DNA of 63,559 nt, the filler included, from Sphacelaria rigidula (Eukaryota), in NCBI GenBank assembly GCA_964200075.2. It is 11 parts of 11 records of this genome, joined end to end, with 100 filler letters (N's around TTAATTAATTAA, not from the genome) between each part and the next. Parts side by side here need not be neighbours in the genome. Positions count along the whole stretch, not along the records: positions 34,725 to 40,411 come from CAXNAA020025245.1; 10 more parts are not named here. One strand, given 5' to 3'. Below are positions 5,789 through 63,180 of the stretch, in pieces. Each line of letters opens with the position of its first letter. The stretch's first letter is position 1. The position numbers were made by a program, and so were the translations under genes. The notes under the pieces are model-generated. The model did not search any database and was not told the DNA's origin. It saw nothing but the letters and a program-made list of their open reading frames with translations.

Positions 5789-5815
5789 CCCCTTCCCCCA
5801 CCCCGCTTCACTTTC

Positions 5816-5859
5816 ACAAATGACTAAGGCACGCAACAAATGAGTACGCCCCCCCCCCC
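5816..5859 (+). mobile_element. Poly(C)-tailed LINE 3'-end fragment (family A)
   Basis: AAATGACTAAGGCACGCAACAAATGAGTACG followed by C11, matching the 3' end of the LINE at 38824-39335. Confidence 0.85.
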
Positions 5860-5877
5860 TCCTCACTTTCTGCCATT

Positions 5878-6449
5878 AGCCTGGCCCGGCAAGAACTCAG
5901 CGTGCTCCGTTCCGGCTTTGTAGGGACGACCCCCTATGGGGTTGGTGTGGATTGGGCAATGACGCTGTAAAACACGCCTCTCACTGCGTAAGCTAGGCAA
6001 CCAGGTTCCCGGATATTTGTCACGCTCTTGCGTATTTTTTTGCGGTGATCATAATGGTGGTCGAGCTATAACATTTTGTGCGGGGTGAGAGAACCTCAAT
6101 TCCGCGCAAAGGGGATGGCAATACTATGTACTGTTTACGTGGTGAGACACGCATGAGGTAGTGTGTAAGCCGTGGCTGTCTCTGGAAGTGGCGATACCAG
6201 AAAAAGAAGCAATTCATTGTAGACTGTCACCCAAACACAAGATAATCAGTACGCTTCGGGGCGAACAATCTTAGCAGGATGTAGCTCACCCTTCATGCGA
6301 CTCGCCGAACACATCACGGCGCTTCGCGCTCGGTCATTGATTGCGAGCCTGATCCGGCGAACATCCGGCGTGGCCCGTCCCGACTTTGTATGGGTGCGAG
6401 GTCGATGATCAGATGACTACGGCATGAAAGATCATGAGTACACCCCCCC
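5878..6449 (+). mobile_element. Non-coding poly(C)-tailed SINE-like element (family B) placed just after the family A tail
   Basis: Aligns with 34132-34624, 38492-38820(-), 46299-46390, 49443-49610 and 52086-52160(-). It ends ...GATCATGAGTACA-C7 and has an internal ~48-bp direct repeat (5880-5927 / 6346-6395). No long ORF. Confidence 0.85.
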
Positions 6450-9522: not shown

Positions 9523-9693
9523 GTCTACAGGCCGACGTCTGGGGATGCGATGTACCTGGTTCTCGATCGGTTGGAAGGGGGGAGCGTGGAAGGTCTGTGG
9601 CGCGAGCAGGGAAAGTTGAGCGAGGATCACGCGGCCCACATCATGCTGCAGGTCGTGTCGGCTGTGCATTACTGTCACCAGCGAAATATTGCG
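9523..9693 (+). CDS. Ser/Thr protein kinase (CAMK/CDPK-like), exon with subdomains V-VIa; GC donor
   Basis: Encodes VYRPTSGDAMYLVLDRLEGGSV...AVHYCHQRNIA. The donor G|GCAAGT at 9694 joins in frame to HRDLK. Confidence 0.9.
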
Positions 9694-10810
9694 GCAAGTA
9701 TACTCAAGAAAATAATACGCCACGTACAAGAGTAATATAGCACAGATAAGTTGTAAGGCCTGATGACTCCCTGCAGTATTTGCAGACTGAATTTTTTTAA
9801 TTTTCATGAATAAAATCGCTCGAAACTTACTTTCGCAGCTCTTGTTCCCTCCGCGGTGCCTTGTTAAAGCGTTACGGTCCAAGTTCACACTTCACCCAGA
9901 GATATCTCGACTGTATTCCAGCAGAGGAGCACCAAACAAGGGTATTCTCCTGCAGCGGATTACACAGCCTGTTTTTTTGTTGTTGTAACACGGAACAGTA
10001 GCGGATTCGTTCGTGTTTTTTGTGATTACTTCGTATCATGCTTGTGTGATCATACTTGTAAACCCTTGTAAATCCCTCCGCTGCCAGACCCCCCACCCCC
10101 CCCGCCACAGGACGAGTGGGTAGTCCCATGGGATTGTGCCATGTCTCCGCCGATCCTTGTCTCTTGAATCAGCATCCCAACAGACCGACGAGTTTGGTGG
10201 AAATTATCGCTGTTTCCTTATTTTTTCTGTCGGCGGGAACCAGGAACAATGATTCGAAGATCTTGTACTGTTGGGTTTCGAACCCATGATCGTCGCCGTC
10301 TTATCCTGAGAGGTGGGACGACGTTTCGGGGGAGGCGGGAAGGGAAGAGAAGACAGCGACCAAACCAGATCTTCTTGGGAAAGGGAAGCGATCAGTTTTC
10401 TAGATCTCTCATTCTGTTGCTATCCGCGTGCTGTGCTCTGTTGGTCCTTTTGCTTTAGAAGCCAATTCGTGCTTTGCTTCGCGTTCTTCATCGTGACCTG
10501 ACGATATACAATGAAAGGTCACTATCAGTCAATTGTACATGTTCTTCATGCGTTTTTTTTGTGTTTTGCTAATGAATCGATTTTACCAAAAATGATAGTC
10601 ACACGTACGCCCTAGGATTGAAGACCTCATGCTTTCGGTCTTTTTGTCGCCAAGATTCCAGTTTGACGACGTATCGCTTAGACATACTGCCTAATGCCTA
10701 GAACTCGAGGCGTGAGATTGTTTGTTCAATTGTACAGGTACTCAGTCCCAAACGCTACCCCCCCCTGTTGTTTCTCCCTTCTGTAATGTATCTTGGGCAA
10801 AACCGATCAG

Positions 10811-10960
10811 CATCGGGACCTCAAGATGGAAAACAGTGTTTTCGAGGACGCATCACTTGTCCCCATCGTTAAGATCATCGATTTCGGGCTGTGCGCCGAG
10901 CTCAAGAAGGGCGTGACATCCAGGTCTTTCGTGGGTACCGTCCTCTACACAGCACCAGAG
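10811..10960 (+). CDS. Ser/Thr protein kinase (CAMK/CDPK-like), exon with subdomains VIb-VIII
   Basis: Encodes HRDLKMEN...KIIDFGL...FVGTVLYTAPE, with CAG| acceptor and |GTAACG donor. Confidence 0.95.
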
Positions 10961-11576
10961 GTAACGGGGTCCGCTGATTCCGCTGTGGTGGGGTCCCTGT
11001 CGTCTTGGGGTTGCGAGGTGTCGGCGCGTAGCAATGTCGGGGACAGGCATACAACCCGAGGCCGTGTAGATGTAGTCACTTTCAGTCACTTTTTTTTCCA
11101 ACTGAAACATTTAAAGGCCTTGATATGAATGTACAAAAGCTTCTGCGGCAGATATTCTGGACAAGTCTTCAGTCAAGAGGGATTCACCCCTCAGGAATCG
11201 ATGCGACTTTCCCCCGGCACCGTGTGTGAATCTGGCTTACGCCAAGAAAAACCACCACACTCAAATTCACGCCATTTTTTTCGGAGAAGGTAGCTCTGGC
11301 GACCGCGGCACTGTGGGGTCGTGTAAGCATGTGCGTATACAATCGAGCATATTTCCGCAGTTTTGAGAGACACAGAGCCATCGTACGCATATACATTTGC
11401 GACATGTTGTTCGTGATGTTAAATGGACGAACACTTCATGTGTGAGCCATGCTACGATAGAGAGGAGGGGGGGGGGNNNNNNNNNNNNNNNNNNNNNNNN
11501 NNNNNNNNNNNNNNNNNNNNTTAATTAATTAANNNNNNNNNNNNNNNNNNNNNNNNNNNNNNNNNNNNNNNNNNNN

Positions 11577-16836: not shown

Positions 16837-18031
16837 CTGATGACAAACGCGGGTATACGGTGGGGAGAAGGCTATTCTATAAAATCGAGATAAACGATAG
16901 ACCGGCACGGGGGTGTGAGACTTGGGTACAACAACGATCCACCTCAGACTAATGAATACTATGCAAAAACACATACCGCCTCCGGCTCCTACGACGTCTC
17001 CTCTGCGGGACATGACTAAGTCAGACACTTTGGTCACCGCGTCGGACACACAGCGTTGCACCACGTCGTTGCGAGACGTACTCAAATTAACGTTAATGGA
17101 GAACCTGCTCACGTGAAAAATACTCATGGAATCAATCTTAATCTTTCATCGCAGCCAGTACTACCGTAGATTCACCCGAGAACGTCGCGAAAAGAGGACT
17201 ATAGTAGTCGGCATCAGAAGTTTTCAGAATTCGTAGTTGTCCTTTTTTCTGAGTTTTTCTGGANNNNNNNNNNNNNNNNNNNNNNNNNNNNNNNNNNNNN
17301 NNNNNNNTTAATTAATTAANNNNNNNNNNNNNNNNNNNNNNNNNNNNNNNNNNNNNNNNNNNNAACAAGACATGTCCCATATTTTAGCTCTTCGGCTAAT
17401 TTTAAACGAGTCCTCAGTGTTTGCCGGGTGCCGATCTTGAACGCTCGGACATGATCGCGCTTCGCGCAAATAATTCAATTTACTATTATCCCCATGGATG
17501 GGTCCTGTGCCACAGATTTGCCAACATCACTTGGCACAAGTTCGACCCGCCTCACGAATATCAATTAATTGCACAATACCACTGCAGTAAGCGGTCTCAG
17601 CAAAGTGCGGTCACATCCGATCTGCGATCCACCGCACTATGCAGGGACCCAAACTGTACTCTACAGTACACCGTACTCCTTGACTGTGCCAGCGACTCCT
17701 GGGATCGATCTACAGTACGAGGAGAGCATGTCGAACATTCGAACATTCATAACATACTGACGAAAAACCCAACCAACCAACGCGCACCAACAGCAGAGAT
17801 ACGACCCCGACTGTATTACCATCGGAGAAGATCTCTCTCTCGATCCAGGCGATCTTTCGGATCGGGGTCATGGACTCTTCACTTCTCGAAACTTGAGGTT
17901 GAACAAGTCATTGCGCAGGGGGTGTTATACTACGTAGTGTGCCGTACAGACCGTACAGAAACAGTAACGCAAATGTCTCAAAACGCAAGACGCCAACACA
18001 CAGTCGCGGTCATGACAACCAAACCGCCAAC

Positions 18032-18227
18032 CTGGAGAAACATAGCCAGAGCTGGACCATTCCCCGAGCTGAGAAAGACCGTACGGTCCCTGGCGTGAAC
18101 CATCAGGTGCGCGAAGATACCAGTTTACCCCCCTTCCTCCTCCTGCCCCTGCCGTGGTGGCTTTCACTGCCGCTCCGAAAAATGCGCCCGCAGCAGCCAG
18201 CGTTGTTCTTGACACGTGGAACCTCAT
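18032..18227 (-). CDS. Exon encoding a GYF-like domain
   Basis: Encodes NWYLRAPDGSRQGPYGLSQLGEWSSSGYVSP, fitting the GYF pattern WxY/L...GxxQGP...LxxW...GY. Donor CAG|GTTGGC at 18031; the 5' boundary is uncertain. Confidence 0.7.
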
Positions 18228-18976
18228 CGTGAGCCAGACGACTCAGCGCTGAGGGCCACGCCGGGGGCAGAAAAAAGAACAGCTTACGCCAGCAAGCCAG
18301 CTGCTTGGGTGATGATCGTGCTTCGAGCACACAGTACCTAAACCTGCTTCGCCGGATCCTGAGCAACATCAACAGGAGTTGCCGACCGATCATGATGGGG
18401 TAAGATGTCGTTTTCTAAATGGGTTGCGCTAGCGTGTTTTCAACTTATCTTTATCCGTACATGGATCCATTCACCAAGTGAGGTTGGAACTACAGTATCT
18501 GTATAACACTCTGTTCGCTCTACTGCCTAAGATACCCTGCAGCAGACGTTCCTGTGGGAGTCTAAGGAAAGGGTCGTTCGACGCAGCAGTACCATATAGT
18601 ACCATTGCAGGGCAGAGGTTCATCTTGAGATTTTGGGGACATCCCGAGCAGAACACCGACCGCACGGTACTACTTAACCGCGTACTGGCCTTGTGCCGCG
18701 GAAGGGGTTCCAGATCCTAGGCTTAGGGGACAAGATGCCCGCACCAGCACGGCGAAGACATCATGGAGCGCCCCCAGCGCACCTCAGAGTTAACATTTGT
18801 GGTACTAAAATGACTTTCCAGCAATTCATGGGCTGTTGTTGCTTGTACTATTGCTTTGGGTGTTGTGCAGTCATAAGCCTCATGACAGTTCTTCTTGCGA
18901 CGACATCATCTTCCACCAGCGAGGACGTCCTTGTCAAGACCCAACCCAGGTGCAGACAGTAGGGTAGCCCGCCACT

Positions 18977-22671: not shown

Positions 22672-22930
22672 GACTGCCACCCGGCTGGGGATGGTTGTGT
22701 CGGGGTAAGCTAACCCCATCGACGACACAACCAACAAGTAGGTCAAGGTAGCTTGACCTATAGACCAGCATATGTTTCGTGTCAGTGGTAATGCAACACA
22801 CAGTCTAGGCAGTGGGTCAGGCAGACAGTGCTGACGTCCAGGCTCAATCCTGCAACTTCGGAGTTTCGCCCTGTGCTGAGCACCAAATTGAACCCCGCAG
22901 CTGCAGCGTTTTACCCGGCGTTGGGACACT
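22672..22930 (+). mobile_element. 5' end of an RTE-like LINE (structured leader plus tandem PAM2-like motifs)
   Basis: Aligns with 36420-36680(-). Encodes SRLNPATSEFRP and TKLNPAAAAFYP. Confidence 0.8.
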
Positions 22931-23389: not shown

Positions 23390-23640
23390 ATGCCGTGATG
23401 CCCCCCTCCCCCCCCGAGAAAAGTGGCTGGTTTGAGGAGGCAAAATCTACATGCGAATCAAAATGACAAGGGCCGAGCACGCTGCGAGCAGCGGGGAAAT
23501 CCCGCCCTTGGGATCATTTCCGCCAATTTTGACCGTATGAGACGCTCTATGCAGTCTAAAACCGGCTATCAATCGCTGTATGACCATTTTCTTCGCGACA
23601 GTTTTGTTTGGGGCTGGTTTGAGGGGAGTTATCGCGGCAT
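23390..23640 (+). mobile_element. MITE-like element (family C) with C-run/G-run-containing terminal inverted repeats
   Basis: Ends are ATGCCGTGATGCCCCCC and GGGGAGTTATCGCGGCAT. The ~200-bp core matches 40015-40254(-), 47400-47625(-) and 53967-54230. Confidence 0.75.

Positions 23641-26373: not shown

Positions 26374-26444
<71 letters not shown>
26374..26444 (+). repeat. 71-nt poly(G) tract (one T at 26410)
   Basis: Read directly from the sequence. Confidence 0.95.
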
Positions 26445-34724: not shown

Positions 34725-36680
34725 CAGGTACACAAGTGTGTTCATACTTCACCTGTAGGAGCTGGATCGCATAGAAACTGATCTGTCCGACGTGTGTAAT
34801 CTTTGCCTCGCAATATCGTTCTCTGCTTGTCATTCCGACAGTCTCCACCCTGCTTTGAGATGACTGAACCATCCTATCATGTCATCAAGAATATACACCT
34901 CCAACTCTCCAGCCAACCTCCAGGTACCGTCCACCCCGGGTTGGATCACCTCTCAAGAGCTATTTTGCACGCTGCTCGCAGTGTGCACCATGCGGGCTTC
35001 TCGCTCGATAGTCCCAGTCGCACCGTTGAGCTTGCCTTGTCCCCTTCATTCCCGGCCTGTTCGAACTCCGTTCGGATGCCATCATCCTCAAACCATCCCG
35101 ATGAACACGGCTTTCGGGTCAGGCGGGGTACCACCTTTTCAACTGCACTCAGGAGTTAATCGGCAAAGTTCGCAGACAGTGTACCGAAGGTATCGCCAGG
35201 TCTATCTTGTTTGAACCCGTTGATGATGAGCTGGGTAAGTTGTTCACACTGTTGGCGTCAGATATTATTGCTCGCCTATCGATCGGTTTGCACCCAATGA
35301 AAACTCGCCTGGGTCTCTTCTGTGCAAAGCGACCGAGAAACCACACTGAGGCGCATGCGATATTGTGGTCAGAGCTCGGCGAGTGGATTGGCTGAAGGTG
35401 GACGGTGACATTGCGAACAAGCCTGCGCTGATCTTGCCATGTCAGGATATAGCCAATGCGTTTGTTGTCCGCGGGACGGTTTGCAATACCGTTGAACGTA
35501 CGCAATGTGCTTCCCTTGGAGGTGGAAAGAATGCGTTGCCAAGGGCAAGCCTGTTGTCACCTGCACGTTGTAGTAGAGACGTTCCCTTCCTGTAGTTGGT
35601 TCGGGAGTCCCGGCCGTATGGCCCCACCATTTTACATTTCTCCTCACCTCTTCGTACCCTAGTCCTAGCGTCGGGGCTCATTATAATAACGAGGTGGTGT
35701 TTGTTGGGAACTCGGTTCACAAATCCTGTCCAACTCAGTCCAGAACATGTCTCTCGTTTCTGTCGACTTTGATGTGACTGTAGGGACGTAGGCAATGACA
35801 AACGTAGCAGCATTTTATTTGCCTGAGAAGTTGGAAGTCATCGACATAAGCCGTTCGTTGATGAGTGTCTGAGTTGACGTCGCCTTGTTCATCACTGACT
35901 CCTTCACCGCCAACTACCATCTAGCCCTTTCCTTTCCCCCTCCCTCCACGCGGCAGAAGACACGATATCCCGCCGCAATAAACTCGGTACGGCCCGTTCT
36001 TCTGGTCTCCTGGACTCCGGTGACGCCACATCTCACCGCTTGACATTATTGCAGAACTACCTCAGCATGGCCAGCTGCGTTCTTTCCCGTGAGGGCCAAG
36101 TGTACGGACTACAAGTAGCCACTTTGAGCTCCCCTGCACGCGACCCAGCTCCAACCTTCTCCACACGTCTTCCTCTTTCATCTGCCCTGCTTTTCGGTCC
36201 GCTTCACCTTCGTATTTCACGCGCGAGATCTTGTTCCCGTTCGTACTCTGATTCTTGTTTGGCACGCAGGTCGGTCACGGTACTTGCCTTGCGCTGTAAT
36301 CTCACGGGGAGGGTGCACCCCTCCCAGTCCGCGTCGTTCACTAGCTCCAGTCCACCGAATCTGCTACCTACTACCCACACGCGTCTCATCTCTCCATCAA
36401 TGTGCTTACCGTGATGAAGTCCTGACCCCGGGTAACCTCTGCAGCCGTGGGGTTTTAGTTTGGTTCTCACTACAGGGTGAAATTCCGCAGCTGCAGGATT
36501 GAGCCTGGAGGCCACCACTGTCGGGATGACCCACTCACTGCCTCGACTTGTGTGTTGCATCTCCACTGACACGAAACACGGACTAGTCTGTAGGACGAGT
36601 CACTCTTCCCCACGCCTCCGTTGTGTCGTGGGGTGGGGTTAGCTTACCTCGACACAACCGTCCCCAATCGGGCGACGGCC
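34725..36680 (-). mobile_element. Decayed RTE-like LINE: 5' leader, N-terminal extension and apurinic endonuclease (APE) domain
   Basis: Frame-broken APE motifs occur in order: ELKVAT.VRTL (~36130), GVQETRR, DART, GPYGRD..LALGNAFF, RIGYILT..RRLVRNVTV, SDHN. The RT would lie beyond the contig end. Clade assignment is by motif style only. Confidence 0.85.
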
Positions 36681-38491: not shown

Positions 38492-38820
38492 GGGGCGGGG
38501 GAGGGGAGGGGTGTGTGTGTACTCATGATCTTGCATCCCGTAGTCATGCCGTAGTCATAGGACCACTGCCCTCGCATCCCTGCAAAGCCGGGATGGAGCA
38601 CGCTGGGTTTTCGCCGGACCATGCTTGCAATCACCAAGCACGAAGCGCCGTGATGTGTTCGGCGAGTCGCATGAAGGGTGAGCTGCATGCTAAGACTGTT
38701 CCGACCGAAGCGTATTGATCATCTTGAACACGGATGACAGCTTACGATGAGTTGCTTCATTTTCTGGTATCGCCACTTCCAGACAGCCACGGGTTACACA
38801 CTGCCTCATGGGTGACTTAC
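38492..38820 (-). mobile_element. 5'-truncated family B element directly downstream of the family A poly(C) tail
   Basis: Its reverse complement matches 6140-6449. The 5' junction abuts G13 at 38824-38836. Confidence 0.88.
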
Positions 38821-38823
38821 CAT

Positions 38824-39335
38824 GGGGGGGGGGGGGCGTACTCATTTGTTCTTTGCATGAGTCATTTGATCATTGATTACATGTCCCTTTCGAGACGGAG
38901 AACCGTTCCTACTCCAAATAGAGACATCTCCAACAGTTGGGGCGCACATTACGCTTCTTCCGTACACCACACAGAAGCCTCCTACATATCTTATCCACGT
39001 CCTGTTTCGCCGTCTGCGGCCAAGATCTATCTTCTACAGTAGTGTAGCCATCGTTTTCTCCCTACTGTCTAATGCATCAGACGATTCCATGCCACCTTCG
39101 TTTACTTCCCGCAGTCCCCCCTCTGGCACGTCCCGTTCCTCCTTTAATGGTTCACATTCTGCCACTATATGAGTTCTACTCTCTATTGCTTTGCCACAAG
39201 GGCAATTCTGTGCATCTATTTTCTCCTCCTCTCGACTACTGGTTCATATCATTCTCCTTTCTGGCAGGTGCGGGTCCCTCACCCGAGATCGTACAGTCAA
39301 TTTTTCGCGTAGTCCCTTTGGCCATGCGAATATGT
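38824..39335 (-). mobile_element. 5'-truncated CCHC-knuckle LINE (family A) with a poly(C) tail
   Basis: Decayed ORF end ...HLPERR..SSREEEKIDAQNCPCGKAIESRTHIVAECE...DALDSREKTMA...SRNGSPSRK, then TGA-GTACG-C13. The CxC-x8-H-x4-C knuckle resembles non-LTR ORF2 C-termini. Confidence 0.85.
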
Positions 39336-40014
39336 CACCGCGGGGGGGTAGAGACGTATGCCACTCCTCTGCGAGCTGGCGCTGGGATTGGTATCACGCC
39401 GAAGTTGGGCACTAGAGGCAACACGGACATCGGCCTGTTGGTTATTCGCACATTGAATGTGCGCGCAGAATCAGTGCTCCCGCAGAAACCGATGGAGCGG
39501 CAGTACTAATTGTCTGGACCGCAAAGGTACAGGCTCCCCGGAAAATCTTCAAATTGGTCAAGTAACCAACGGCTTGGGAAAAAATATGCTGCTGTCCACG
39601 GAGTGTTGTGGGGTGTTGTTCACCTGTCTCCTCTACCCGTTAGGCATCTTGTTTTAATATGTTGGCTCGGGGGAGAGTTGAGCCGGCTGTAACCGATAAC
39701 GGCAGCACATTATGCGTGGTTTCCTCTCCATTCGATCGGCAACAGACACAACAGCACGTGTCGACGACCACAGCCCTGAAAGATCATTCTCCGTCGCAAC
39801 AAAGCTTCCGGGACCCAAACAGGGTCCAAAGGGTAAAAAATAATGATTCTTGGCGGCGTGGGCACGCATGTCGCGTGTTTCCTCAACAGCGTCTCTCGAG
39901 GTTAATGTCACTTGACACAGACCATGAAAAATGAGGGCTGTATAGCGTACATGCGATATATTATAGTACTGCATCTGTTACAGGGAGTGTAGCGAGCACA
40001 GCAATGGTACGAGT

Positions 40015-40254
40015 TATGCAGCGATAGCACCCCCCCCCCCTCCCCGCCCAAAACCAGCCACAAAACTGTCACGAAGGAAACGACCACACAGCGCATGATG
40101 GCTGGTTTCAGAATGCATGAAGCACCTCCTGTGGGCAACATTGGCGGAAACGATCCTAGGCGTGGGAGTTCCAAGCTGCTCGGTGCTCTCGGCTTTTTTT
40201 TCCCCCATCATTTTGATTCACATGTAGATTTTGGGTCCTCAAACCAGCTACTTT
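40015..40254 (-). mobile_element. Family C MITE-like element whose G-run end is hit by family A insertions
   Basis: The core matches the reverse complement of 23420-23625. Confidence 0.75.
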
Positions 40255-40411
40255 TCTGACGGCGGGGGGTACTCATTTGTTGCTCACCTTAGTCGTTTGA
40301 CCATTGGCCGCGCATCTCTTTCGAGACGCTCTGACGGCGGGGGAGGGGGGGGGAGGGGAGGGCGTTCTCATTTGTTGCTTGCCTTAGTCATTCGACCACT
40401 GACCACGCATC
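40255..40411 (-). mobile_element. Two stacked family A 3'-end insertions, the first with a 14-bp TSD
   Basis: TCTGACGGCGGGGG occurs at 40255-40268 and 40330-40343. The second copy spans 40345-40411. Confidence 0.9.
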
Positions 40412-46298: not shown

Positions 46299-46390
46299 GG
46301 CGTACGCCGCCCCGGCGTTGTAGGTATGCGAGGTCAATGGTCTTATGACTACGGCATGCATGATCATGAGTATACCCCCTCCCCCTCCTC
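46299..46390 (+). mobile_element. Family B 3' end with C-rich tail
   Basis: ...GAGGTCAATGGTCTTATGACTACGGCATGCATGATCATGAGTATA-CCCCCTCCCCC. Confidence 0.85.
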
Positions 46391-46620
46391 CGAAAGAATC
46401 CGTTGTCCCGCGGGATAACTCCGTCTCTGTCACGGCACACGCCTTGCACGTTGGCATCGCGGATTGAATCAACACTGCCGTGCCTCGCCGAATATCGTCA
46501 TTTGCTTTTTGTTGCTATTCACGTCCTCACGATTCAACGACGAGAGAATCAGATGATTCTCAGAACCAAACCCAGATGCATCTCATGGGGATCGAGTCCA
46601 CCTGGTTTCCCCCATTTTTC
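46390..46620 (-). mobile_element. tRNA-derived SINE, decayed copy
   Basis: The body matches 24680-24900 and has a B-box-like GGACTCGATCC. Confidence 0.55.
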
Positions 46621-46639
46621 TGTCTATACGTGTTCGTTC

Positions 46640-47020
46640 ACGTCGGTGTATGGCAGAGCAGTGTGGTGCCTCGCTTCGTTGTGTTTGTTCATGGATGAGA
46701 GGGTTCATGCCCGAACTAATACGGCAGTAGTAGATGCGCCGCAATCTGTTCCTTTTCCACGGCCTTTTGCTCTCAACGGCTGGGTGCGAGTGAGGTTCTG
46801 CGCGAGTCCTTTTCCACCGAAGTCATGTGGTAGAGGCCGGCCGTTCTTATTCTTTTATTTTTTTCTGAGTCTACTCTGCTTTTTTGTTCTCTTTTCTCTG
46901 CTTGTTCTTCTCCTTTCCTTCAGAGAGTGCTTCAGTCATGATTTATCACGGGCACGTGTGTCATGTGGCCACGGCTGGACCCTTGGGAAGTTCATTGAAA
47001 GTACGACAATCATTCAGTAA
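46640..47020 (+). repeat. Interspersed repeat family D
   Basis: Matches the reverse complement of 18977-19400. Confidence 0.75.
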
Positions 47021-47289
47021 AAAATCAAATGGTTCCGACCTATTTGGTTCCCCCTCCACCAAGCTACGTTGACCGAAAAAGGTACGTCAACTAGTAAGGC
47101 CCACGGGCGAATAAGGTACATATGTAAGTAGAGTACGCTAGGGAATGACGTGCAGCAGGAGTTACAGGCTCATCCGCGGAAACGCATGAAAGAGTGCGCA
47201 CTGACGGTCTCTCGAGAACTCTTTGGAACTATTACTTAAAATTTCACACATCCATCCGTTTGCCCAGGACGAAAATGAATATATGAGTC

Positions 47290-47625
47290 TTTTTACGATA
47301 CCCCCCCCCCCATAGTGCTCCGTCTCGAAAGGGATGCGTGGTCAATGGTCACACGACTAAGGCAAGCAACAAATGAGTACGCCCCCCCCCTCCCCCCATG
47401 AAAAAAATAGCCTAAACTCACACTAAGAAAATGGTCATCATAGAGCCTGATGCATTTCTTCAGGCCGCATAAAGCGCCGAACATGTGCGAGATCGGCGAA
47501 ACCGAACACAAGCGTGGGGAATCCCAGCTACTCGTTGTGCTCGGCTTTTCATTTCGATTCACGTGTAGATTTTTCGCCTGCCCAAACCAGCAAGGGTCTT
47601 GGGGGAGGGCTATCGTAAAAAGTGT
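47290..47625. mobile_element. Family C MITE with a family A 3' end (47316-47397, +) nested in the C-run of its left TIR
   Basis: CTTTTTACGATA-C11 ... GGGGGAGGGCTATCGTAAAAAG. C-runs flank the nested insert on both sides. Confidence 0.85.
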
Positions 47626-49442
47626 TGTGCTCTATTTTTCCCGCACTTCTTATTCTTAGCTCAAGATGTTGAATATTGATAGTGCCAGAACATTTGTTTT
47701 TGACGCCATGTCTCCCTCTCTTACGAGCGTTGACGTTGGGAAATCGTAGATGAAAAACAGTCATGATCGTGGTATTGTTTCCGGGTAGGCGCATGTGCTA
47801 TTTCACATCGGAACCCCGTCAGATCGCGGAAGGAAAAGTGAAAAAGCGCATGACCCGAATTTTTGGGGGAAAACATTCTGCTGAATCTGCGGCAGCTTCA
47901 CGAAATTTTACCGATTGGGTTGTGAAGGTTTTAAACATCCACGAATCGGGAATACGAACGACGGGACGTATTCCAACTCATAGCATTCGCCTCTGCAGTT
48001 AAGATATTGGAGGGAAAACATATTTCGCAACAGTATTTTGCCCGTTACTGTCAAAACATCTCGAGTTGAGAATTGCGAATCCAATGTGAGCTACACTCGT
48101 AATAGTCGTCTTGCGAATGTGCAAGGTTGTACAAAATTTAATATTATCATTCATGAAACCAAGGACGGAAAAGCGAAGTGATTAAATATCTGGATTTGGG
48201 GGGAAAGCACAACTCACGAACATTTATCTTGAAAAGCTTGTCAGGTGCACATAACTTGTGAAGCGTGAACAGCCGGAAATATGCCGACCTCCGTTTGTGA
48301 CCTTTGAATCAAGATATTGGGACAATTTCGTTGTGTTTCGGATATCACCCCTCGCTACGCGCTTTATCGCTACGCCACATGATCCAGCCGTGGTCACACT
48401 TATTTATAAAAATCTGGAGTTGAGAGTTGAAAATTCAACTTGGGTCACGGGCACGTATTTTTGTCTCTTGTGCCGCTGTGCTGATATTTGCAAAATACCT
48501 TACTGGGAGCGTGACAGGTCTTCCTGCAAACGGGCATGAGAGGGCTGGATCTGGTGCAGAATATAGCGGGGTTTGATCGAGTTGTGATACTCGTACCGTT
48601 TCAATCCACGACTGCTCTGTAGCTCCAATGCAACCAGAGTGTTGTCTTCGTTTCGCTGACAGCATCACGCAAATGTGTCCAAGTGTCTACGTATTGTTCG
48701 TAGATCCCGGGGAACGTTCCGGGAACGCTCGTTCATTGTTATCCGTGAACTAGCGTGTACGGTGCAGAAAGAAGTCAATAAGACATGGAGGCTGGGCGCG
48801 GTTCAGACGAACAGAAGGGAACAGCGGACAGGCGTAAGGGTGCCGGTTGAACGACAGCGCGTCACAATGGTTGACATCGAACGGTTCTTTCCGGCCTGGT
48901 ATCCAAAATTGCCTGTGCGCACCTACGAACGATCGTAGTGTTCAGGGTGGCTTTCAAATACTCTTCGACGAAGCCAGAATGTCGTTTCAGCAATCGTGCG
49001 CGTGTCTCAAAAAGCCGTGCACGTCGCAACCACTTCACAGGCAATCCATTCCAAGACGGCAGAACGCTCGTCTCTCGAGGTGGCACTGGCAGCTCTGTCC
49101 GAAGCGCAATCGGCGGCGCGCAGTAGAGAGCGGGCCGTGAAACGAGGACTCGCCGACGGAAACAGGTGAGGGTGTTGTAGATGCAAGCGGGACAGGGAAG
49201 CGACTTAAAATGATTGTTGGCGCGGCACTACCTGTACATCGATACACCACGGCTCGATGCTCTCCGTTTATGTGCATGGCAAATGACTGAACACATGAGT
49301 GTCGATGCTTTGATGTATCGAGATGTCAGCTGATGTGCACAACTAGGACGCACCGTCGGTAGGCGAACAATGTTTTTCTTCAAGCTCCCATGGGATGTTG
49401 TTTACAGAAGCATATAGGAGTGGCGTTTAGACACGCCAGAAC

Positions 49443-49610
49443 ACTCACCCCTCATGCGACACCCCGAAGACATCACGGCGCTTCACGCTTGGTGATTGCG
49501 ACTCTGGTCCGGCGAAATCCGGCGTGTTCCGTCCCGACTTTGTGGGGATGCGAGGTCAATGGTCTAATGACTGCGGCATGACTACGGCATGCAAGATCAT
49601 GAGTACACCG
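49443..49610 (+). mobile_element. Family B 3' portion
   Basis: CTCACCCCTCATGCGAC...GCAAGATCATGAGTACACC. The tail is only 2 C. Confidence 0.85.
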
Positions 49611-50266
49611 CATTAACGCGGATCGCCAAGGGGGCCAGATTTTCGAAAATGCACATGCCGTATGTAGACCTTCGAAACCCACGCAAGCTAGTGTTGACGT
49701 GTCAGTTTGATCGCTGGAGCGCTGCGCGAACGCTGAGGTTCTTCGCAGTATTTCGTTGAGTTAGCCCATCGCTGTAGTGTCAAAATATGCGTGTATGTTG
49801 TGACAAGGTGGAGTGCCGGCCGTTCGAGCGGCTTGTTCAGTTCAACTGGTGGTAAAGTAAAACCGATAGGAAACCTTCCCCGCCAATGTTCTCGCCCACA
49901 AGCAGTATAATGCGACTGGTGAGTAAGAGTGCAATCTAGCCCCATCGGGTTCATTTCGGTTGGTTATTCGAATCTAAATAGGCACGTCCCTGTCTCCTCC
50001 CCCTTTTTTCACAAATGACTTACAGATCCTCCTGTTTCCCTGCACATCACCTACAAAGTAACAGGAGACACGATCACACAACCAGCAGACCCTTCCACGA
50101 TACCCCGAAGACCCCGCCCTCAGACGTTGAGCGGTTGGAAGCGAGGAAGGCCGAGAGGAGGGGCACGCCGTCTAGAAAAAGACCCAGCACCAGCTGCTGG
50201 TGACACAAGACTCAGCGCCAGCTTCTGGTGACACCGAAATGCCGTGAAGATCAGCAAGTCGTCCAG

Positions 50267-50355
50267 CGATAGGGGGGGGGCGTACTCATTTGTTGCTTGC
50301 CTTAGTCGTTTGACCATTGACCACGCATCCCTTTCGAGACGGAGCACGATAGGGG
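50267..50355 (-). mobile_element. Family A 3'-end insertion with a 9-bp TSD
   Basis: CGATAGGGG occurs at 50267-50275 and 50347-50355. The tail is G9 on the plus strand. Confidence 0.92.
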
Positions 50356-51756
50356 AGGGAGGGAGGGATGTTGGTCATACTCTAGATGTACCTATGATTT
50401 TTTGCCTTATCCCCGTCAACAAGCAGCACACTTTGCCTCTAACTCGCCACCCATAGTGCTGTTCTACCCGTTAGCCCCAAGTTGCCGAGATGGCTCGTGA
50501 TGCAGACAACAGCCACTGCGCACAAATGTGCCGCCGTGTTTTTGGTAAGGTATGTAGAGCAAGCCACTAATGTACTTTTCAGATCTGCACTATTGTTCGG
50601 CATATTCCCCGGCCAGACACACGTGAATCGCAGCTTCTTCCACTAGGCCCCGGCTGAAGGTGCCGTTTCTGGGGCGACACCTAGAATTACACGAGCTCTC
50701 TCTAGGATGTACATTCATTTGTGTGTGGGAGGATGATGCTTGCTTTTCAGTCGGTAGAGACACTCTGAATATTTGGGGCTTCACAATACGGGGAAAACCC
50801 CCCAACAACTAAGGGGGGCTGCAATGGCACACTGTTGAGTACGTAAATAGCCACTCAGCAAAACACATCGGATACGTACGCGCCTTGCAATTTTCACAAC
50901 GAAAGTGTTGCTGTTGAGCGAGAACCGCGGTTCTCATGACCACGACCAGGCGGAACTTCAAATCTTGCACCAGCGGCTTTACCATGTACTTGACGGCGGC
51001 GTGATACTACCCCAGACGATACCTAAAACACAAGAAGTCATTCACGTGGCGTAGTTAGCCCGTTTACAAGACTACACCAACCGCAATTTGCCGCAAGGCT
51101 CTCTTTTTCCGACCCTGCCGTCTGCTTCGCATGCCAGGCATTTTCAAGGGGTGATCAGACCTGCGCCTGGACATCGCGCTATTATAAGCCACTTGTGTAT
51201 AATAATTAGAGACATGGTTATGAAAAGCGTATCTCCATTGACTCATTTCATGAGACGACGTGATTGGCTGTTTCCTGCAACTAATGAATAACCCAAGTGG
51301 GGGTATATAGAGCGTCAGGGAACTTCCAAGGGTTTGGACGGGCAGCTTCATTCTACTCCGGTTTACATGGTCATATAAAATTGATCATTTACCCTGCCTG
51401 CAGTATTGATTGAGTTATTGTGTCGGCACATCCAAAATGGGGTTCTCGTAGCTTGCCCGGGGAAGCTTCAAAAGATTGGGCATTGGAGTGTCCGTAAGTA
51501 ATCCCATGCATGAATTCCCCCCCCCCCCCGAAAAAGAAGAGACTCCTGTGTCGGCTTTCCTCCCTCCTGTGTAACCCCGGCGGGTCCGCCCACATCTGCG
51601 GAAAGGTGCAGACTAGCGTCTAGAATAGATGAGATGACAACACCGCAGTTTTAGGGCTCTGACTATCTTGAAACTTTCGAGCGAGGAGGAATCATGGAAT
51701 GAATAAGTTCGTCCACTACTGTTTACTTGCCCCGAAGTGAGTCACGCGTTCACAAA

Positions 51757-51872
51757 GTTGAGCAAATTCGGGATACTGTTTTTGACAGTTCGAGCAAACT
51801 CGGAACTTGTTCTGACAGAGTTTTGAGCACATTCGGAATACTTGTCTTCTCGTAACGTATGAACAAATTCGG
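51757..51872. repeat. Diverged ~30-35-bp minisatellite, 4 units
   Basis: The core TGAGCAAATTCGG and its variants recur four times. Confidence 0.7.
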
Positions 51873-51902
51873 CAGTTTCCTTCTCTCCCGCCCCCCCCCC
51901 CC

Positions 51903-51985
51903 TAGCTAAAGGGACAAAATGAGACGTGAACAAAAGTGGCATGAAATCGTTTGATGCATTAGACAGTAGGGAGAAAACGATGGCT
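51903..51985 (+). mobile_element. Family A LINE internal fragment with its 5' junction at a C-run
   Basis: Encodes VNKSGMKSFDALDSREKTMA and is preceded by the C-run ending at 51902. Confidence 0.85.
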
Positions 51986-52650
51986 NNNNNNNNNNNNNNN
52001 NNNNNNNNNNNNNNNNNNNNNNNNNNNNNTTAATTAATTAANNNNNNNNNNNNNNNNNNNNNNNNNNNNNNNNNNNNNNNNNNNNGCCTGAAGCGTGCTG
52101 ATTATCTAGCATTTGGATGACAGCCTCCAATGAGTTGCTTTATTGTCTGGTATCGCCACTGGGGGGAATGAATCCGTATCGACAGAGAATAAAACACGAT
52201 GCACATCATGCACAATGGAGATGTTGCAGAACAAATGCACAATACAAACGGTCTCCCTCCGTGGAGAGAAAAATTATGCAAGTGCGGGCCTCCGGTGTAC
52301 TGAGCCTGACCGTGTCAAGACGGGGTTTTCATCTAGACTGCATGCAGCAGTACCGCACCACCACGCCAAAAGCAGACCATTCCCCCAACATGCAGCTATA
52401 TTTTGCCAACTCGAACAGTTAAATACTTCGACGGCACGGCGCGACTTCGGTAAGGTGGTCACGACTTACAGTGCAGTTCATGCTGAAAGTCCCGGTTTTC
52501 CGGTACAATGACGGGCGTCGAATCGAGCAGACACCAAAAATTGCCGTGGGTTTGGGAACAGTCTCCTCCATAAAACTCAGGACATTCCTACACTAGAGCA
52601 TGACCGGTCTGAAGTGTGGCCACCGCTACCCTCAAAATTCCGCAATACTT

Positions 52651-53028: not shown

Positions 53029-53628
53029 CTGATGATATACGGTATTGAATGGGTGATGGGAGATCGACCGGTCGGTCTGTTGGGTTAATTTGGCTTGATC
53101 TGATTCGATTGTATTGTCTCACACTACCCGATCCGCCCCAGTCTTGTGGCACATCACCAATATGGACGTGCTCAAGGCGGTTTAGACCGAAAGGCTCTCC
53201 ATGAAGAAAAAACAAATGAGAAGACGAAGTTTAAAATTGAACGGACTGGACGGGCACGTTGCCCCCCTAAAAATAAAAAAAAGAAGTTAACAGTGCAGGT
53301 GTTCCGAGGGTGAAGGAAGTAGTGCAAGTTAGTCAGGCCATACACGACCAGTGCGTCACGTCTTCACTTGATCAGAACTACATACAATGGCGATGCTGCT
53401 ACAGCAGAGGTGCCAAAAAAAAAAAAACGGTTTACAAGCATTCCATTTATATTCAGACAATATATTGTCTTATTACTCCTTCTTTTTTTTAACCCGCCCG
53501 CAAGCGTTCACACCGACTCGTTCTCGTAGCCGAACCACCTGGACCTTGCTCTGAAAACACAACCGTACCGATGCAAACATGAGATGGCACGGAGAAAAAA
53601 CGCCTACCCGCCGAGCATAAACTCTGAC

Positions 53629-53722
53629 CTGGTACTTGAGCAGAGCCTCAGCAGGCAGCTGTAGCTCCTTGAACATGAGAGCCAGTGATTCCTTCACAAC
53701 GAAGAACTCTCCGAAGTCCCAC
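53629..53722 (-). CDS. TRAPPC10: TRAPPC10 exon (signature motif)
   Basis: WDFGEFFVVKESLALMFKELQLPAEALLKYQ matches the Trs130 WNFxxFFxxKExLAxxF...ALxxYxEL block. Confidence 0.9.
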
Positions 53723-53966
53723 CTGTGGATTATGACACATAACGTCTGCCCGTAAATGAGTCATTTCGACGAGTAGCTAAACAGGCATGATCTCTAGACA
53801 ACCCGCTAGCTTGTACAAATCGCCGTCCCTTGGGGATGAAAATATAGGCACGCACTGACAATACAATACCTGTGATTCTGACGGAAAAGAGCTCTTGCCG
53901 CACAAGTCTGACTGTGTATTCCCGTGTCTCGGCTCCCCCCTGAATTGGTGACGATGATCCACCTGC

Positions 53967-54230
53967 GACACTTTCTACGGTAGCCTCCCCCCCCACCCCA
54001 GAAGGGGCTGGCTTGGGGAGGCAAAACCTACACGTAGATTGGAATGAAAAAAGCCGAGCACATCGAGCAGCTGGGAATTCCCATGCTTGGATTCGTTTTC
54101 ACCGATGTCGCCCATATGAGGCGCTTCATGCAGCCTGAAACCAAACATCAGGCGCTGTATGACCATTGTATTTTCGAGAGTTTTTCGCTGCGTTTGTGTT
54201 TGGGGGGGGGGGGCTATCGTAGAAAATGTC
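53967..54230 (+). mobile_element. Family C MITE in a TRAPPC10 intron
   Basis: TIRs are GACACTTTCTACGGTAGCCTCCCC and GGGGGCTATCGTAGAAAATGTC. Confidence 0.85.
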
Positions 54231-56955: not shown

Positions 56956-57469
56956 CTGTGGCAATGGGGGAGACCCGGAAGGTGGGGGTGGGGGTGGGGG
57001 TGTGGGAGGGGAGGGTTGAACGGGGTGTGAAGAGGATCATCCGGGTAGGAGCGACGTGTAGGTACCCTATTCTCCAGCAGACAGGTGACTCCTGCCCCAG
57101 TTGGTTTCAGTACTCTGCTACGATCCATACCCTCATCCCGTGATGGACCGTATCGCAGACACAACGGGAGATTGTGGCGCAGTTGGGGGGCAGGGCAGTG
57201 TGACAGAATGGGGATGTAGGGTACAAAGTTTTTGACAACAGACGAAAATCTCAAATCCCTTTGCACGCAAGACTGTCTTAGATTGTTGGACAACAACTGA
57301 TCCCGCTACAAATCCAATCGCGGTCACAAGAGAGACAATCGTTGCACGAAATCTCCACGGTTGGTGTAGAAAGACGTTGACATGAACAACAAACATCTTA
57401 CGGAGCCATCCTTCCCTAAATGCACATGCAGGAAAGCCCCCCCGCCCTCTTTCCCCCTCCCGCCCCTAC

Positions 57470-57537
57470 ATCCCGAAAGGGATACGTCGTCAATGGTCAA
57501 ATGACTAAGGCAAGCAACAAATAAGTACGCCCCCCCC
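57470..57537 (+). mobile_element. Family A 3' end with C8 tail, intronic
   Basis: ...GTCAATGGTCAAATGACTAAGGCAAGCAACAAATAAGTACG-C8, with a C-rich 5' flank. Confidence 0.88.
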
Positions 57538-58519: not shown

Positions 58520-61500
58520 GACCTGCTACTACTAGTCAACGATATCTTTCCAGAACAAAATTCATTACACAACAGCATTCTCGAAGGCTGCACAACAACT
58601 CCAATAGTTTCCTATTGCCCCGCATAATGTCCCGCCTGTTACTTAGTGAACAAACCTTCGTATCTTAGCTTGATGCTACTGAACATTGACTCACATATGA
58701 TATGCAACACGAAACTCTCGACACCCCTCCCCAATGGAAGTAGCACTCAGGAAAAGTAAAGAAATGCGGACCGATGAATATTCTAGGCCCACTTATGCAA
58801 ACGCATGTTTCCATTTCTGCACATTCTCTTCAATTTACCCTTGGATTCTCAATCTCAACCCTTTCTACGTTCTCATTTCTTCAAAACACCGTCGTGATCC
58901 AACCACACGCTAAAAAGTACGCATCATACCACCTCCCTTGTTCGCGTCCTTATTTTAAGTCCTAAAGGTCTTGATTATGTGCAGCAGATGCAGGTGACGT
59001 TGCTTGCCCGAGCATTTCGTCCCAATGTCGGCGTTGTTCGTGGTCATGAAGGGTGACCCTCCGCTTCTTGATGAGTTAGCGAATGAAGAAGTAGCGCAAT
59101 GCCACAAGCTTGGTCCGTCCACTGTAGGTGCTGTTACCGGCAACGTGAAGTGTTGAGGTGTCGTCGATGTGAACCGGAACACTGTGAAATGCCTCGCCGA
59201 ATCCCAACTCCAGCATCATCTTAGAACGGAACCCAGCCTCCTTGATTGCTAGCGCTGCCACCACAAGCTCAGCTTCTATTGTCGACTGAGCAGGTGGACC
59301 CTGTATTCCGACCTTGAAACTCACCGGAGCGTTCGAGAGCATGACGATATACGTGGACATCGATTTCCCGTTATCAGGGTTGTTCCCTCAGTTGGCGTCC
59401 GAAAACGCCGTGAGCTGGAATCCAACCTTCCTGTACGTGATATCGAAATTAGCACTCCGCGCAAGGTAGCGTAGAAGATGTTACGCAGCACCCATGTGTG
59501 CTATTGATGATCTTGACATCGCTCTCGCAAGCTGGTTGACAGGAAAATGGATATCATACCGGGTCACTTGTGCTAGATACATTAACGAGCCGGTGATCGC
59601 CTGGTATCGCTGTGTTGCCGCCGGATTCAGAAGCTGCTGTTCCGGTTGATTTGATGACAGCTCTGCTCCCGTTCCTGGTGTACTCAGCGGATTGCAGTCC
59701 CTTATGCCTCACTTCTCCAGGATCGATTTGGTGTAGTTCTCCTGGCTGATCGTGAGCGTCCCATTCTCGCAATCTCGGGTGACTCTCATTCCGAGTGCAA
59801 GCGACACGTCTCCCATGTCCGTCATTTTGAAACGAAACACGAGCGTTTTCTTGAGCATCTATAGTACTGCCACGTCCCCTCCAACAAGGAGCACATCGTC
59901 CACGTAGAGGGTGAGAAGCGCGACAACCTTCCTCTTTCCGAGAGCGGTGATGACGGTGTCACCCCGGGAGCTACCAGCCCTAATGCCGTCGTGGTCGTCG
60001 TTGTCAGTGAAGGCGTAGATGCAGGGATCTGAAGCGAGAGAGGTGGAACTGATCTCCAGAAAATTGTTCATGGTGTTCCACCAATTCCGTGGCGACTGAC
60101 GGAGGCCATATAACGACTTCCGGAGCTTGATCACGAGAAGAACTCTCGTCACGAGATCGTTCTCCTCATAGCCCGGGGCCATCTTGACGTACACTTCCTC
60201 TTCAACGGGCGCGTTGAAACATGCCGTCTGCACGTCCAGCTACCAGAGTTCCCAGTCCATCTCGGCAGCCGCTGCAAGCACCATACGGATGCTCTGTAGC
60301 CTACAGAGGGAAGCGAAGGTGCTGCCGCAGTCAATGTCTGGTCTTTGTCCCCATCCTTGGACGACGAGCCTTCCCTTGCATGTGTTGTCGGCTTTAACCA
60401 CATACACCCACCGGGGTCCGATGGCGATCATCCCCGCAGGAATCGCCGTGAAGGGTACAAGCGTGAAGACATTACTAAAACGGAAGCTTTCTACCTCCTT
60501 GTCTGATGCTGCCTTTCATTGCTTCGCCGCTGGCAGTCGCATTGTCTCTTGAAAGGTGTTCGGCACTATGACCACTTTCTCCCCCTCCGAACAACTTCGA
60601 ATTCGGATGTTTGCGGCAGAGTACGCATACTCCAGAAAGGAAACTCCATCTTTGAGCGATGTCTCGCATATTTGTCCTGGTGTAGAAGTTGGCCAAAGTC
60701 TCCAGGCGCTTAAGCTCGCGGGCTCGAGCGCTGCTCGTGCCTGCGCCGATTATGATGTTTATCGGGGCTTGTGGGTTAGCCCGCGTGCTGACACGTGAAG
60801 AATCCGCTGGGGGTGACGGGGTTGTAGCTGGAGGTAAACCTTCAGTGACTCCCCCTTCTGGGGAGGCTCCAGTTGGGACCTCTCTCGATGAAGATCCGAT
60901 AAGGTCGTTGACGCGGTCCGTCACGTCGCGTAGATCTCCGTGTTGTTTGCTTTTGCTTAGAACGCATACGTCGCAGGGTGATAACGTTCCATCGATATCA
61001 GAGCCTCCCACCTTCCGAATTACATTCAGGCTCTTGATGCCGACGTGACCAAGTCGGCGATGTCAGAGGTTTGCGCCTGTGCTGACGTGCATAGCCACTC
61101 CAGGTTGCTGCTCCGCGAGGCCGCTCAGCTTCATGCGAAACGTGTAGAGGTCTTGGTCATTGATCGACTGTGTAATGCGTGAGAGGACTGCGTGTTTAGG
61201 GGGCCGCGTTGTAGTTCGAAACATCTCAGGATCGATATTTTCAGAAGAAATCCGGCCAGTCCCTGCAGGGACCACGCCCCTGACCCTGACCCCAACCCTA
61301 AGCCTAATCCTAACCCTAACCATGAGGCTGTTCAAATTCCGATGCGGTCCTCTAAGCACGCGGTCCTCCACGCATTACAGATTGTTCCAGGGGAAGCACG
61401 AACGGTGAAGTCTCTAGTCGGGGATCATATTGATCAAAGATGGCGATGGTGCCTTGCTTGGTCGCCATTTTCACGGATAACAGATGACACCCTAGTCGGG

Positions 61501-62720
61501 GACGACGGAGCAAGAGAGGGCGACATGGTGCGCCTTCTCTTGTCTGTCGGTGACTGTACCATGAATGGTGGTAGTTGCGACTGCTTCCACTTTATTTTGT
61601 CCCCCTGTTATAATTTTGAACGGTCGTTCGAGGGCCGTGAACGAACTCGCCCGTGCTAAAACACCCGACTCGAGATTGATGTCCAAGTAATGACCGGTCG
61701 CGCCACTGTCCAACAGCCAGGTTACGGAGTTGGTGTCGTTGGCTGTCCGAGCCGTTGGTGCCGCCGCAATGAAGGCTGCGCCTGTACCCCCACCGAAGGC
61801 ACCGAAGAGTTCAAATATATGTTTTGGGAGTCCGGCATGCTCTGGTGGGGTAGACGCGCCGAAGGAAAACACAGGAGGAGCCGACTCCGTCATCACAGGT
61901 TGCTGGGGTCCTCCGACTGTTCCGGACGAATTGCTGTTTGCAGTCGTCGCCGCGGCAGGCGGCAGGATGAACGACCGGGACATGCTCACATTGGCGATGT
62001 TGGCGTTTCCATTCGTTGCTGCTTTCTCTTGTTGTGCCTTGCACTCAGCATCGTTGTGTGTTGTTGTTCTGTGATACGAGCACCATTTTGATGCTTCGTT
62101 ACTTCCCTTTTTCTTGTCTGCTTTTCGACGTCTCTGTGTTGGGTTACTCTGCCGTGTCCGACTTCACCTGTTGTTCGGGCGTTCACGTTGACAGTGCTCA
62201 AACCCCTTGCAAAGGTGACACTGGATACGAAATGTCGTAGCCTGCATGGCCGATCCAGGTCCGGCCACGGTTGGTCTAGTTGACGAACCAAAATTCCGAC
62301 CATTGTACGAGTTGCACATTGCGGTGTGAATGTTGTCGAGACCGAAGTCGCGCTCGGTGTAGCATTTCGTGCGCACGAAGTCATACTCGAGGGTTACCGC
62401 CTTGAGGATAATGTCCTCGTAGCGATCGTCATGCATTTTATCCCCGAGGCTCTCCATACGCGGATGAATTTTGTCCATGTCTTGGAAGAAATTTTCGGGG
62501 TCCTCGCCCGGTTGCATCGTGCGGCTAACCAGCTGAGCGTGAATTGCCCGCCTAGCCGCTTTGGTGTTGCCGTCGAACTTCTCGACCAGGGCCTTCCACG
62601 CACCATGCCCATCACCGACCCGCAGACCGTCGAGGTCTTCATCCTCTGTGTACAAGAACCGCCGGATGGTCGCAGCAGTGAAGGTGCTCTTATTGTTCGT
62701 AAATGTAGGTTGAATACGGC
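58520..62720 (-). mobile_element. Decayed Ty1/Copia LTR retrotransposon lacking the integrase core
   Basis: Domain order is gag (GHGAWKALVEKF; knuckle CHLCKGFEH), protease WLLDSGATGHY (~61700), pre-integrase HRRLGH..CDVC (~61060-60960), RT (KGRLVVQG, KSLYGLRQSPRNW, YVDDVL) and RNase H (FSDAN*G, STIEAE). A PPT GGGGAGGGG is followed by TG at 58723 (3' LTR start). There are many stops and frameshifts; the 5' LTR is not seen and the LTR end is approximate. Confidence 0.93.
61171..61379. mobile_element. MITE with TGT...ACA termini, ~45-bp TIRs, 5-bp TSD and an internal telomere-like array, nested in the Copia element
   Basis: TGTAATGCGTG...CACGCATTACA with flanks GACTG / GATTG. Removing it restores the Copia frame (LPLEQ|SINDQDLY). 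Confidence 0.88.
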
Positions 62721-62773
62721 CACTATGCGGTCGGAACTGGTGGCGGTGTAACTGATCATGCAGAGAAAAAATA

Positions 62774-63180
62774 AACTACGCAACGCTGTACGCTTCGAGG
62801 CTTATCAATGCTTGACGCGCAATTGCGAATTCCCAGACTGTACCGCCTTCCTGCGCGCACACGTTTAAACTGTAGCTTGTACAGACTGCAGCTGATGCAG
62901 GTTTCGTCCGCAGGGATGATGAACTACGCAAGGCTGTACGCTTCGAGGTTTACCTATTCTCGACCCGTAAGTGCGCATTTTCTGACTGTGCCGCCTTCCT
63001 GCCCTCACAGGTTTTCACTGTACCTCGTACAGACCACAGCTGGTGCAGGTTTTGTCCGCAGAGATTATGAACTACGCAAGGCTGTACGCTTCGAGGCTTA
63101 CCGATACTCGATGCGTAAATGTTAATTCCTTGACCGTGACGCCTTCCTGCGCGCACAGGTATAAACTGTAGCTCGTACAG
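62774..63180. repeat. 148-bp tandem repeat, about 2.75 units
   Basis: AACTACGCAASGCTGTACGCTTCGAGG starts at 62774, 62922 and 63070. Confidence 0.92.

Follow-up and report, generated by a model that had tools for sequence, protein, structure and literature searches.

C-tailed, RTE-X-like LINE copies and their non-autonomous partner at C/G-rich target tracts in an intron-rich eukaryotic genome

In LINEs of the L1 type, target-primed reverse transcription starts from T-rich nick sites, with pairing of the poly(A) tail. LINEs that target microsatellites were reportedly described by Kojima and Fujiwara in 2004. Other LINEs carry simple-repeat tails, such as (TAA)n in the I element and (TGTAA)n in UnaL2, according to the accessible part of PMC3747384. 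The closest described systems to the one studied here are RTE-X elements of the Ectocarpus transposable element (TE) library; in the accessible part of that source, RTEX-1_Ec32 is annotated as 'single EN-RT ORF; (C)n 3'', RTEX-2_Ec32 as '(C)n termini/TSD', and the target-site duplication (TSD) column for RTE-X reads 'C-rich' (PMC12477816). RTEX-N1_Ec32 and RTEX-N2_Ec32 are given there as non-autonomous partners of the Ectocarpus RTE-X LINEs, the former being 607 bp long, with a 60-bp 3' end that matches RTEX-1/2, and an element that 'can be present in tandem' (PMC12477816). In the accessible main text of the same paper, the terms 'C-rich' and 'insertion preference' are absent and target preference is undiscussed, and we found no main-text treatment of a C-tailed, G-run-targeting LINE in the literature.

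The window analysed here, meaning the whole stretch of 63,559 bases, is made up of 11 separate contigs, each 5687-5688 bp long, with 100-bp linkers of 44 N, 12 bases and 44 N between them (at 5689-5788, 11477-11576 and onward). Neighbourhood across the linkers is therefore meaningless and, as the 11 contigs are unrelated, contig ends cut off several element copies. Of the 22 contig ends, twelve fall within the RTE-X-like elements described below or in a G/C run, which suggests that the assembly breaks at these repeats. The contigs look like unplaced ones in size order. Their DNA is eukaryotic and intron-rich: pieces of host genes include split protein-kinase exons about 1 kb apart (9280-9732 and 10787-11125, plus strand), a TRAPPC10-like exon (53476-53760, minus strand) and a weak GYF match (17928-18242, minus strand), and these pieces show long introns. 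Other repeats in the window are a decayed Ty1/copia element with gag, pre-integrase and RVT_2 pieces (59862-62775, minus strand), an (AAT)n microsatellite at a contig start (57873-57920) and a dispersed repeat present at 22680-22927 and 36419-36672 with 77% identity, which directly abuts one of the LINE fragments, at 22943.

An earlier note on this DNA had drawn attention to two TSDs, of 14 and 9 nt, around short repeats, and had interpreted them as signs of insertion into G/C homopolymer tracts. Both duplications are exact, and the bases beside each pair differ, so that both are exactly bounded (Table 1). Among 20,000 random pairs of flanks drawn from the window, 0.2% had a junction-abutting direct repeat of 9 nt or more and 0.03% one of 14 nt or more. 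The best junction-abutting repeats of the nine copies with both junctions measure 14, 9, 9, 8, 7, 6, 5, 5 and 0 nt, where one of the 9s stands for 8 beyond the pure run and the 8 for 15 with two mismatches. Duplications of at least 8 nt thus occur in four of nine copies, compared with 0.5% of the null pairs, while repeats of 6 nt or less, found in about four to five of the nine, often arise by chance, 17% of null pairs reaching 5 nt or more. The two TSDs described earlier are confirmed and lie far beyond chance. All TSDs of at least 7 nt start in a C run on the element strand; in element orientation this run joins the C tail, which bears out the merging of G-run and tail that had been described, and the upstream TSD copy, though away from the tail, also carries a C run.

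The repeat between these duplications, here called S and about 66 nt long, gave six matches at no more than three mismatches in the window compared with none in 100 shuffles, and BLAST added further copies at 5817-5848 and 38839-38909. The latter had been considered as a copy without a TSD, a reading that was rejected, as it is the 3' end of a longer copy of a LINE family, L. Two further families are needed to describe the insertions, a non-autonomous one, X, and a MITE-like one, Z (Table 1). At the ends of all S and X copies stands a terminal motif followed by a C run (17 motif matches in contrast to 3.8 expected), and the tails, though C-rich, are not pure C in every case and contain an occasional T, G or A. 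Since S and X end in one motif plus a C run, their orientation is fixed, with the C run as the 3' tail. The opposite arrangement, an element on the other strand with a G run at its 5' end and joining by microhomology, was rejected on the strength of this shared end and because S reads as the C-terminus of an ORF with a stop codon.

Table 1. Positions of the LINE-related elements, the MITE-like family and the target-site duplications along the window.
Feature	Position	Strand	Remarks
L, 5'-truncated LINE copy, decayed ORF C-terminus with CCHC motif	38824-39341	-	S module 38837-38909; C13 tail 38824-38836
L fragment, 5' junction 51921-51923, cut by contig end	51923-51985	+	contig loose ends at 51921 and 51923
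L fragment (CCHC region), copy cut by contig end	22943-23050	+	counter-example: no C run within 25 nt upstream
X, apparently full-length, ~563 nt + C7 tail (~580 bp)	5880-6449	+	last ~65-80 nt common to S
X, 5'-truncated	38497-38822	-	directly abuts C13 tail of L
X copy cut by contig end	34134-34624	+	no C run at 5' junction
X, 5'-truncated, without C tail	49444-49607	+	counter-example: no upstream C run
X 3' end (46299-46374) + start of C-rich tail	46299-46390	+	5' side cut by contig start
X fragment	52087-52160	-	5' junction abuts C6 run (52161-52166, element strand)
S copy, 61-nt LINE 3' end	40269-40329	-	few nt short at each end compared with other copies
C-rich tail 40344-40363 (element strand) + S copy 40364-40411	40344-40411	-	cut by contig end
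S copy, 66 nt + 5 extra tail C (element strand)	50276-50346	-	
S copy 47316-47381 + C-rich tail 47382-47397	47316-47397	+	in terminal C run of Z copy 47385-47625
S copy, 5'-truncated (31 nt), + C11 tail	5818-5859	+	
S copy + C8 tail	57471-57537	+	5' flank is C-rich tract 57437-57465; best repeat only 5 nt
S copy, tail cut by contig start	11577-11640	-	
TSD copy beside tail of S copy 40269-40329	40255-40268	.	identical to 40330-40343; aligns with terminal run of other Z copies
Second, upstream TSD copy of the same insertion	40330-40343	.	repeat comparison
TSD copy beside tail of S copy 50281-50346	50267-50275	.	repeat comparison; identical to 50347-50355
Upstream TSD copy, then G-rich tract present in empty allele	50347-50355	.	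repeat comparison and contigs of other runs
8-nt TSD of S copy 47316	47306-47313 / 47392-47399		
15-nt TSD with 2 mismatches, S copy 5818	5801-5815 / 5856-5870		
Z, MITE-like family, ~215-250 bp	23400-23620		
Z	40026-40268		
Z	47385-47625		
Z	53968-54213		

The coding content of S and L ties these short repeats to a longer element. A decayed peptide of L with a C-x-C...H...C motif matched 278 library proteins at E no greater than 0.001, all of them short fragments, and one of these, P0130, led to P0152, a single ORF of 1360 aa with an Exo_endo_phos domain at residues 170-392 and an RVT_1 domain at 740-989. An atlas look-up yielded nothing beyond generic EN-RT clusters. S translates to the final 20 residues of P0152 and of a second protein, P0001. 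The stop codon falls inside the terminal motif, 8 nt before the C-rich tail, so that S amounts to the last 20 codons plus the tail and a 3' UTR is almost absent. The link between L and P0152 rests on this common C-terminus and on 57-71% identity through the decayed fragments. Judged by these sequence matches, S represents the very 3' end of an APE-type LINE, and X a non-autonomous partner with the same end. The 5'-truncation that the earlier note had proposed is thereby borne out: the short repeats are truncated copies of a longer endonuclease-encoding element, of whose relatives P0152 and P0001 S encodes the C-terminus. Within the window itself, no endonuclease or non-LTR reverse transcriptase (RT) domain was found in the 167 scanned ORFs out of 189 (stop-to-stop, at least 90 aa).

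Copies also occur outside the window. One library protein, P0118, spans S, a C run and a truncated L, and a 20-nt S query returned four metagenome loci, three of which (L001-L003) are LINE 3' ends followed by a C run; the fourth, L004, was rejected as an S copy, being a chance match. Tandem arrangements of S-tail-S, S-tail-X and S-tail-L are present, the S copies at 40269-40329 and 40364-40411 forming one of the first kind. The copies of S show no diagnostic differences from the 3' ends of L. At the 5' position of S (50346/50347), hundreds of contigs per public sequencing run end exactly, without continuing into L; this suggests either a preferred truncation point or a discrete unit of about 66 nt. 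Neither X nor S has a SINE head of the pol III type (tRNA, 5S or 7SL RNA): an Rfam scan of the whole window at gathering thresholds gave 0 matches, and S is LINE coding sequence. A stable terminal hairpin in the RNA of S and X was considered and dropped, as folding of their 3' ends gave no significant structure (three of four z-scores between -0.02 and +1.1 and one of -2.05, relative to shuffles).

A preference of these elements for C/G tracts as target sites is supported by their 5' junctions. Four or more C in a row occur within 25 nt upstream of 10 of the 13 5' junctions that could be read, compared with 7.8% of random positions; since the tails of the elements themselves count towards this background, the test errs on the conservative side, though it is not independent of them. 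The three exceptions are the L fragment at 22943 and the X copies at 34134 and 49444. Further 5' junctions at or near C/G runs that had been listed before proved to be real and to belong to the same superfamily, with runs at 39342-39348, 47301-47311, 51891-51902, 52161-52166 and 57437-57465. The first of these is the G7/C7 run at the 5' junction of the L copy at 38824-39341, and the third is a C12 run 19-21 nt upstream of the junction of the L fragment at 51923. Strict site specificity is not what we found, since 3 of the 13 junctions have no run and the sequences beside the run vary among insertions. The proposed insertion into G/C homopolymer tracts therefore stands as far as a C/G-rich target is concerned, on the evidence of 10 of 13 junctions, the TSDs and an empty allele, but 'homopolymer' is too strict a term because the sole empty site has only four G in a row; the target tracts are C/G-rich and not always pure homopolymers.

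Members of the Z family are a frequent landing site of S. At each end Z carries a short motif and then a C run of 8-12, the two motif copies being inverted relative to each other, and three S copies (40269, 40364 and 47316) sit inside the terminal C/G run of two Z copies, so placed that the 14-nt TSD copy beside the tail of the first falls within the terminal G/C run of Z copy 40026-40268. The other two Z copies, 23400-23620 and 53968-54213, keep their terminal run uninterrupted and represent paralogous empty sites. An identification of Z with TcMar-N1_Ec32 was rejected, with no obvious match between them and different published termini. A motif like the Z terminus, followed this time by a G run, occurs at two contig ends (11450-11476 and 63524-63559), at 50267-50280 (the target of the insertion at 50281) and in the 3' flank of metagenome locus L002, and may mark a second terminal-repeat family that offers G-run targets. 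The longest homopolymers of the window are G runs of 36 and 34, one base apart, at 26374-26444, with no recognisable S or X end beside them.

We also looked for an empty orthologous site, as had been proposed, and one was found. The contig at 46299-51985 is present wholly or partly in five of seven public runs, and contigs from four of them (X1-X4) were aligned to it. In runs X2 and X3, which show no differences from the window, contigs enter the insert at 50281 from both sides. In record 6 of run X1, from another study, and record 30 of run X4, from another sample, position 50266 is joined directly to 50347: these contigs cover 49583/49595-50266 and 50347-51530 at adjacent record positions (1221|1222), with 10-14 other differences per piece. 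What is absent from the two alleles is exactly 50267-50346, that is, 80 nt made up of S, five extra tail bases and one copy of the TSD. The insertion is recent and polymorphic, and the empty allele keeps G4 in a G-rich tract at the TSD, as reconstructed from the window sequence, which means that the run was there before the element. The filled allele has nine C/G at this site compared with four in the empty one, so the insertion brought in at least five tail bases. For the insertion at 47316 and for the X copy at 49444, no bridging contig was found in the four runs aligned to 46299-51985. Together, TSDs of variable length, 5' ends at many positions and a precise empty site are what is expected of LINE insertions.

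Across the same public data, the summed word depth on S reaches about 10^6 compared with 25-70 on unique sequence, which makes the family very abundant. In 157-468 contigs per run, a long C run follows the tail; on the other side, past the 5' end of S, 181-215 contigs per run continue with one base and then a long G run, and 300-479 with upstream L sequence. Agreement with the flank consensus is only 0.39-0.56 overall and 0.39-0.45 for the C-run and G-run flanks, so these figures are to be read as a hint and not as a count.

The explanation that we favour, with a probability of roughly 0.75, is that the L and X copies were made by target-primed reverse transcription at C/G-rich tracts, with a nick in the G strand and priming on the C tail. 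In this scheme, the strand with the G run would be nicked at a C/G-rich tract, and the nicked 3' end, finishing in G, would pair with the C tail of the RNA and prime cDNA synthesis, a C/G counterpart of the L1 reaction. With a second nick at a distance of 5-15 nt, the resulting TSD would have C as its first base on the element strand. Since each insertion leaves a new C run, old tails would in turn become targets along with other C/G runs, and tandem and nested arrays would follow. Within this scheme, we infer the nick-and-prime step itself, namely nicking of the G strand and pairing of oligo(dG) with the C tail. A possible extension, which we put forward tentatively, is that each insertion plants and lengthens a C/G run that serves as the next landing pad, or else that the last ~66 nt are a discrete minimal retrotransposition unit. 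If such a self-reinforcing loop of runs were true, this LINE family would be a main source of the long G/C homopolymers and tandem arrays of the genome.

The data record insertion sites and not nick sites, and they are fitted equally well by non-specific nicking followed by selection for pairing between primer and tail. An endonuclease with little or no preference, or lesions at G runs such as stalled forks and G-quadruplex breaks, could in this way produce the enrichment through pairing of G ends with the C tail alone. Such loose specificity would lead one to expect junctions without a run, as in 3 of 13, and ends suitable for pairing with a C tail are plentiful, given that G and C runs of at least 7 number 37 in 62.7 kb compared with about 6 in a rough estimate for random sequence of the same composition. 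Endonuclease-independent insertions of L1, however, usually lack TSDs, whereas the duplications of 8-15 nt and the precise empty site seen here match the outcome of two staggered enzymatic nicks, and the relative P0152 has an apparently complete APE domain. We regard this explanation as unlikely.

The upstream C runs might instead have been made during insertion, through nucleotides that the RT adds without a template or through a template switch from one tailed RNA to another that gives tail-to-head tandems. The tandem S-tail-S, S-tail-X and S-tail-L arrangements would fit such an origin, as would the rise from four to nine C at 50281, where some C were indeed added at insertion. Against it, the empty allele, as deduced from the window, already has the G4 and G-rich tract at the TSD, the run is likewise present in the uninterrupted Z copies, and the upstream TSD copies include unique sequence that was duplicated along with it; an origin of the runs during insertion is accordingly very improbable. 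An artefact of assembly or sequencing at homopolymers might be suspected from the 12 contig ends in these elements or in a G/C run and from the make-up of the window as a string of small unplaced contigs. It is hardly credible as the source of the pattern, because both alleles, filled and empty, recur with exact boundaries in independent contigs of two studies, unrelated metagenome contigs carry the same 3' end and C run, and the published Ectocarpus library reports the same features.

Among known systems, L, S and X most resemble the RTE-X elements of Ectocarpus, a likeness established from published feature descriptions in the accessible part of that source. As there, a single EN-RT ORF (here from the relative P0152) is combined with a (C)n 3' tail, C-rich TSDs and very high copy number; as in the accessible description of RTEX-N1_Ec32, a partner of about 600 bp (X, ~563 nt plus tail) has its last ~60 nt in common with the LINE and occurs in tandem. 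The nearest named relatives of P0152 are Ectocarpus proteins. The closest of these, P0155, is 54% identical to P0152 but only 37% to the decayed fragment of the window, and this low identity means that the window may hold a family different from Ectocarpus RTE-X or stem from another species. The earlier note had called the target specificity unusual, a fair description, although the trait was already recorded for Ectocarpus RTE-X elements, as the accessible part of PMC12477816 indicates. Because the trait already stands in a curated library, to judge by that part, the value of the present observations lies in confirmation and in a sharper mechanistic question rather than in discovery.

The likeness to L1 lies in TSDs that start with the base of the tail and merge with it, in 5'-truncated copies, in variable TSD length and in the mobilisation of partners. 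In contrast to L1, tail and target are C/G here and A/T there, and a 3' UTR is almost absent. The partner X also has the specific 3' sequence of its LINE, which corresponds to the 'stringent' type of recognition, whereas recognition by L1 is relaxed, in the terms used in the accessible part of PMC3747384. With the simple-repeat and microsatellite LINEs, these elements have in common a tail repeat that matches the target repeat, pairing or slippage being thought to start reverse transcription, as far as the accessible source material describes it; they differ in that the repeat unit is the single base C and in that a preference, rather than strict site specificity, is seen. They thus offer a natural example of a LINE with C/G in tail and target instead of A/T, together with an exact pair of filled and empty alleles, which makes it testable whether the target is chosen by the endonuclease or by pairing between primer and tail. 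Such an element would also help to account for G/C homopolymers, for arrays of elements in tandem and for breaks in the assembly of brown-alga-like genomes.
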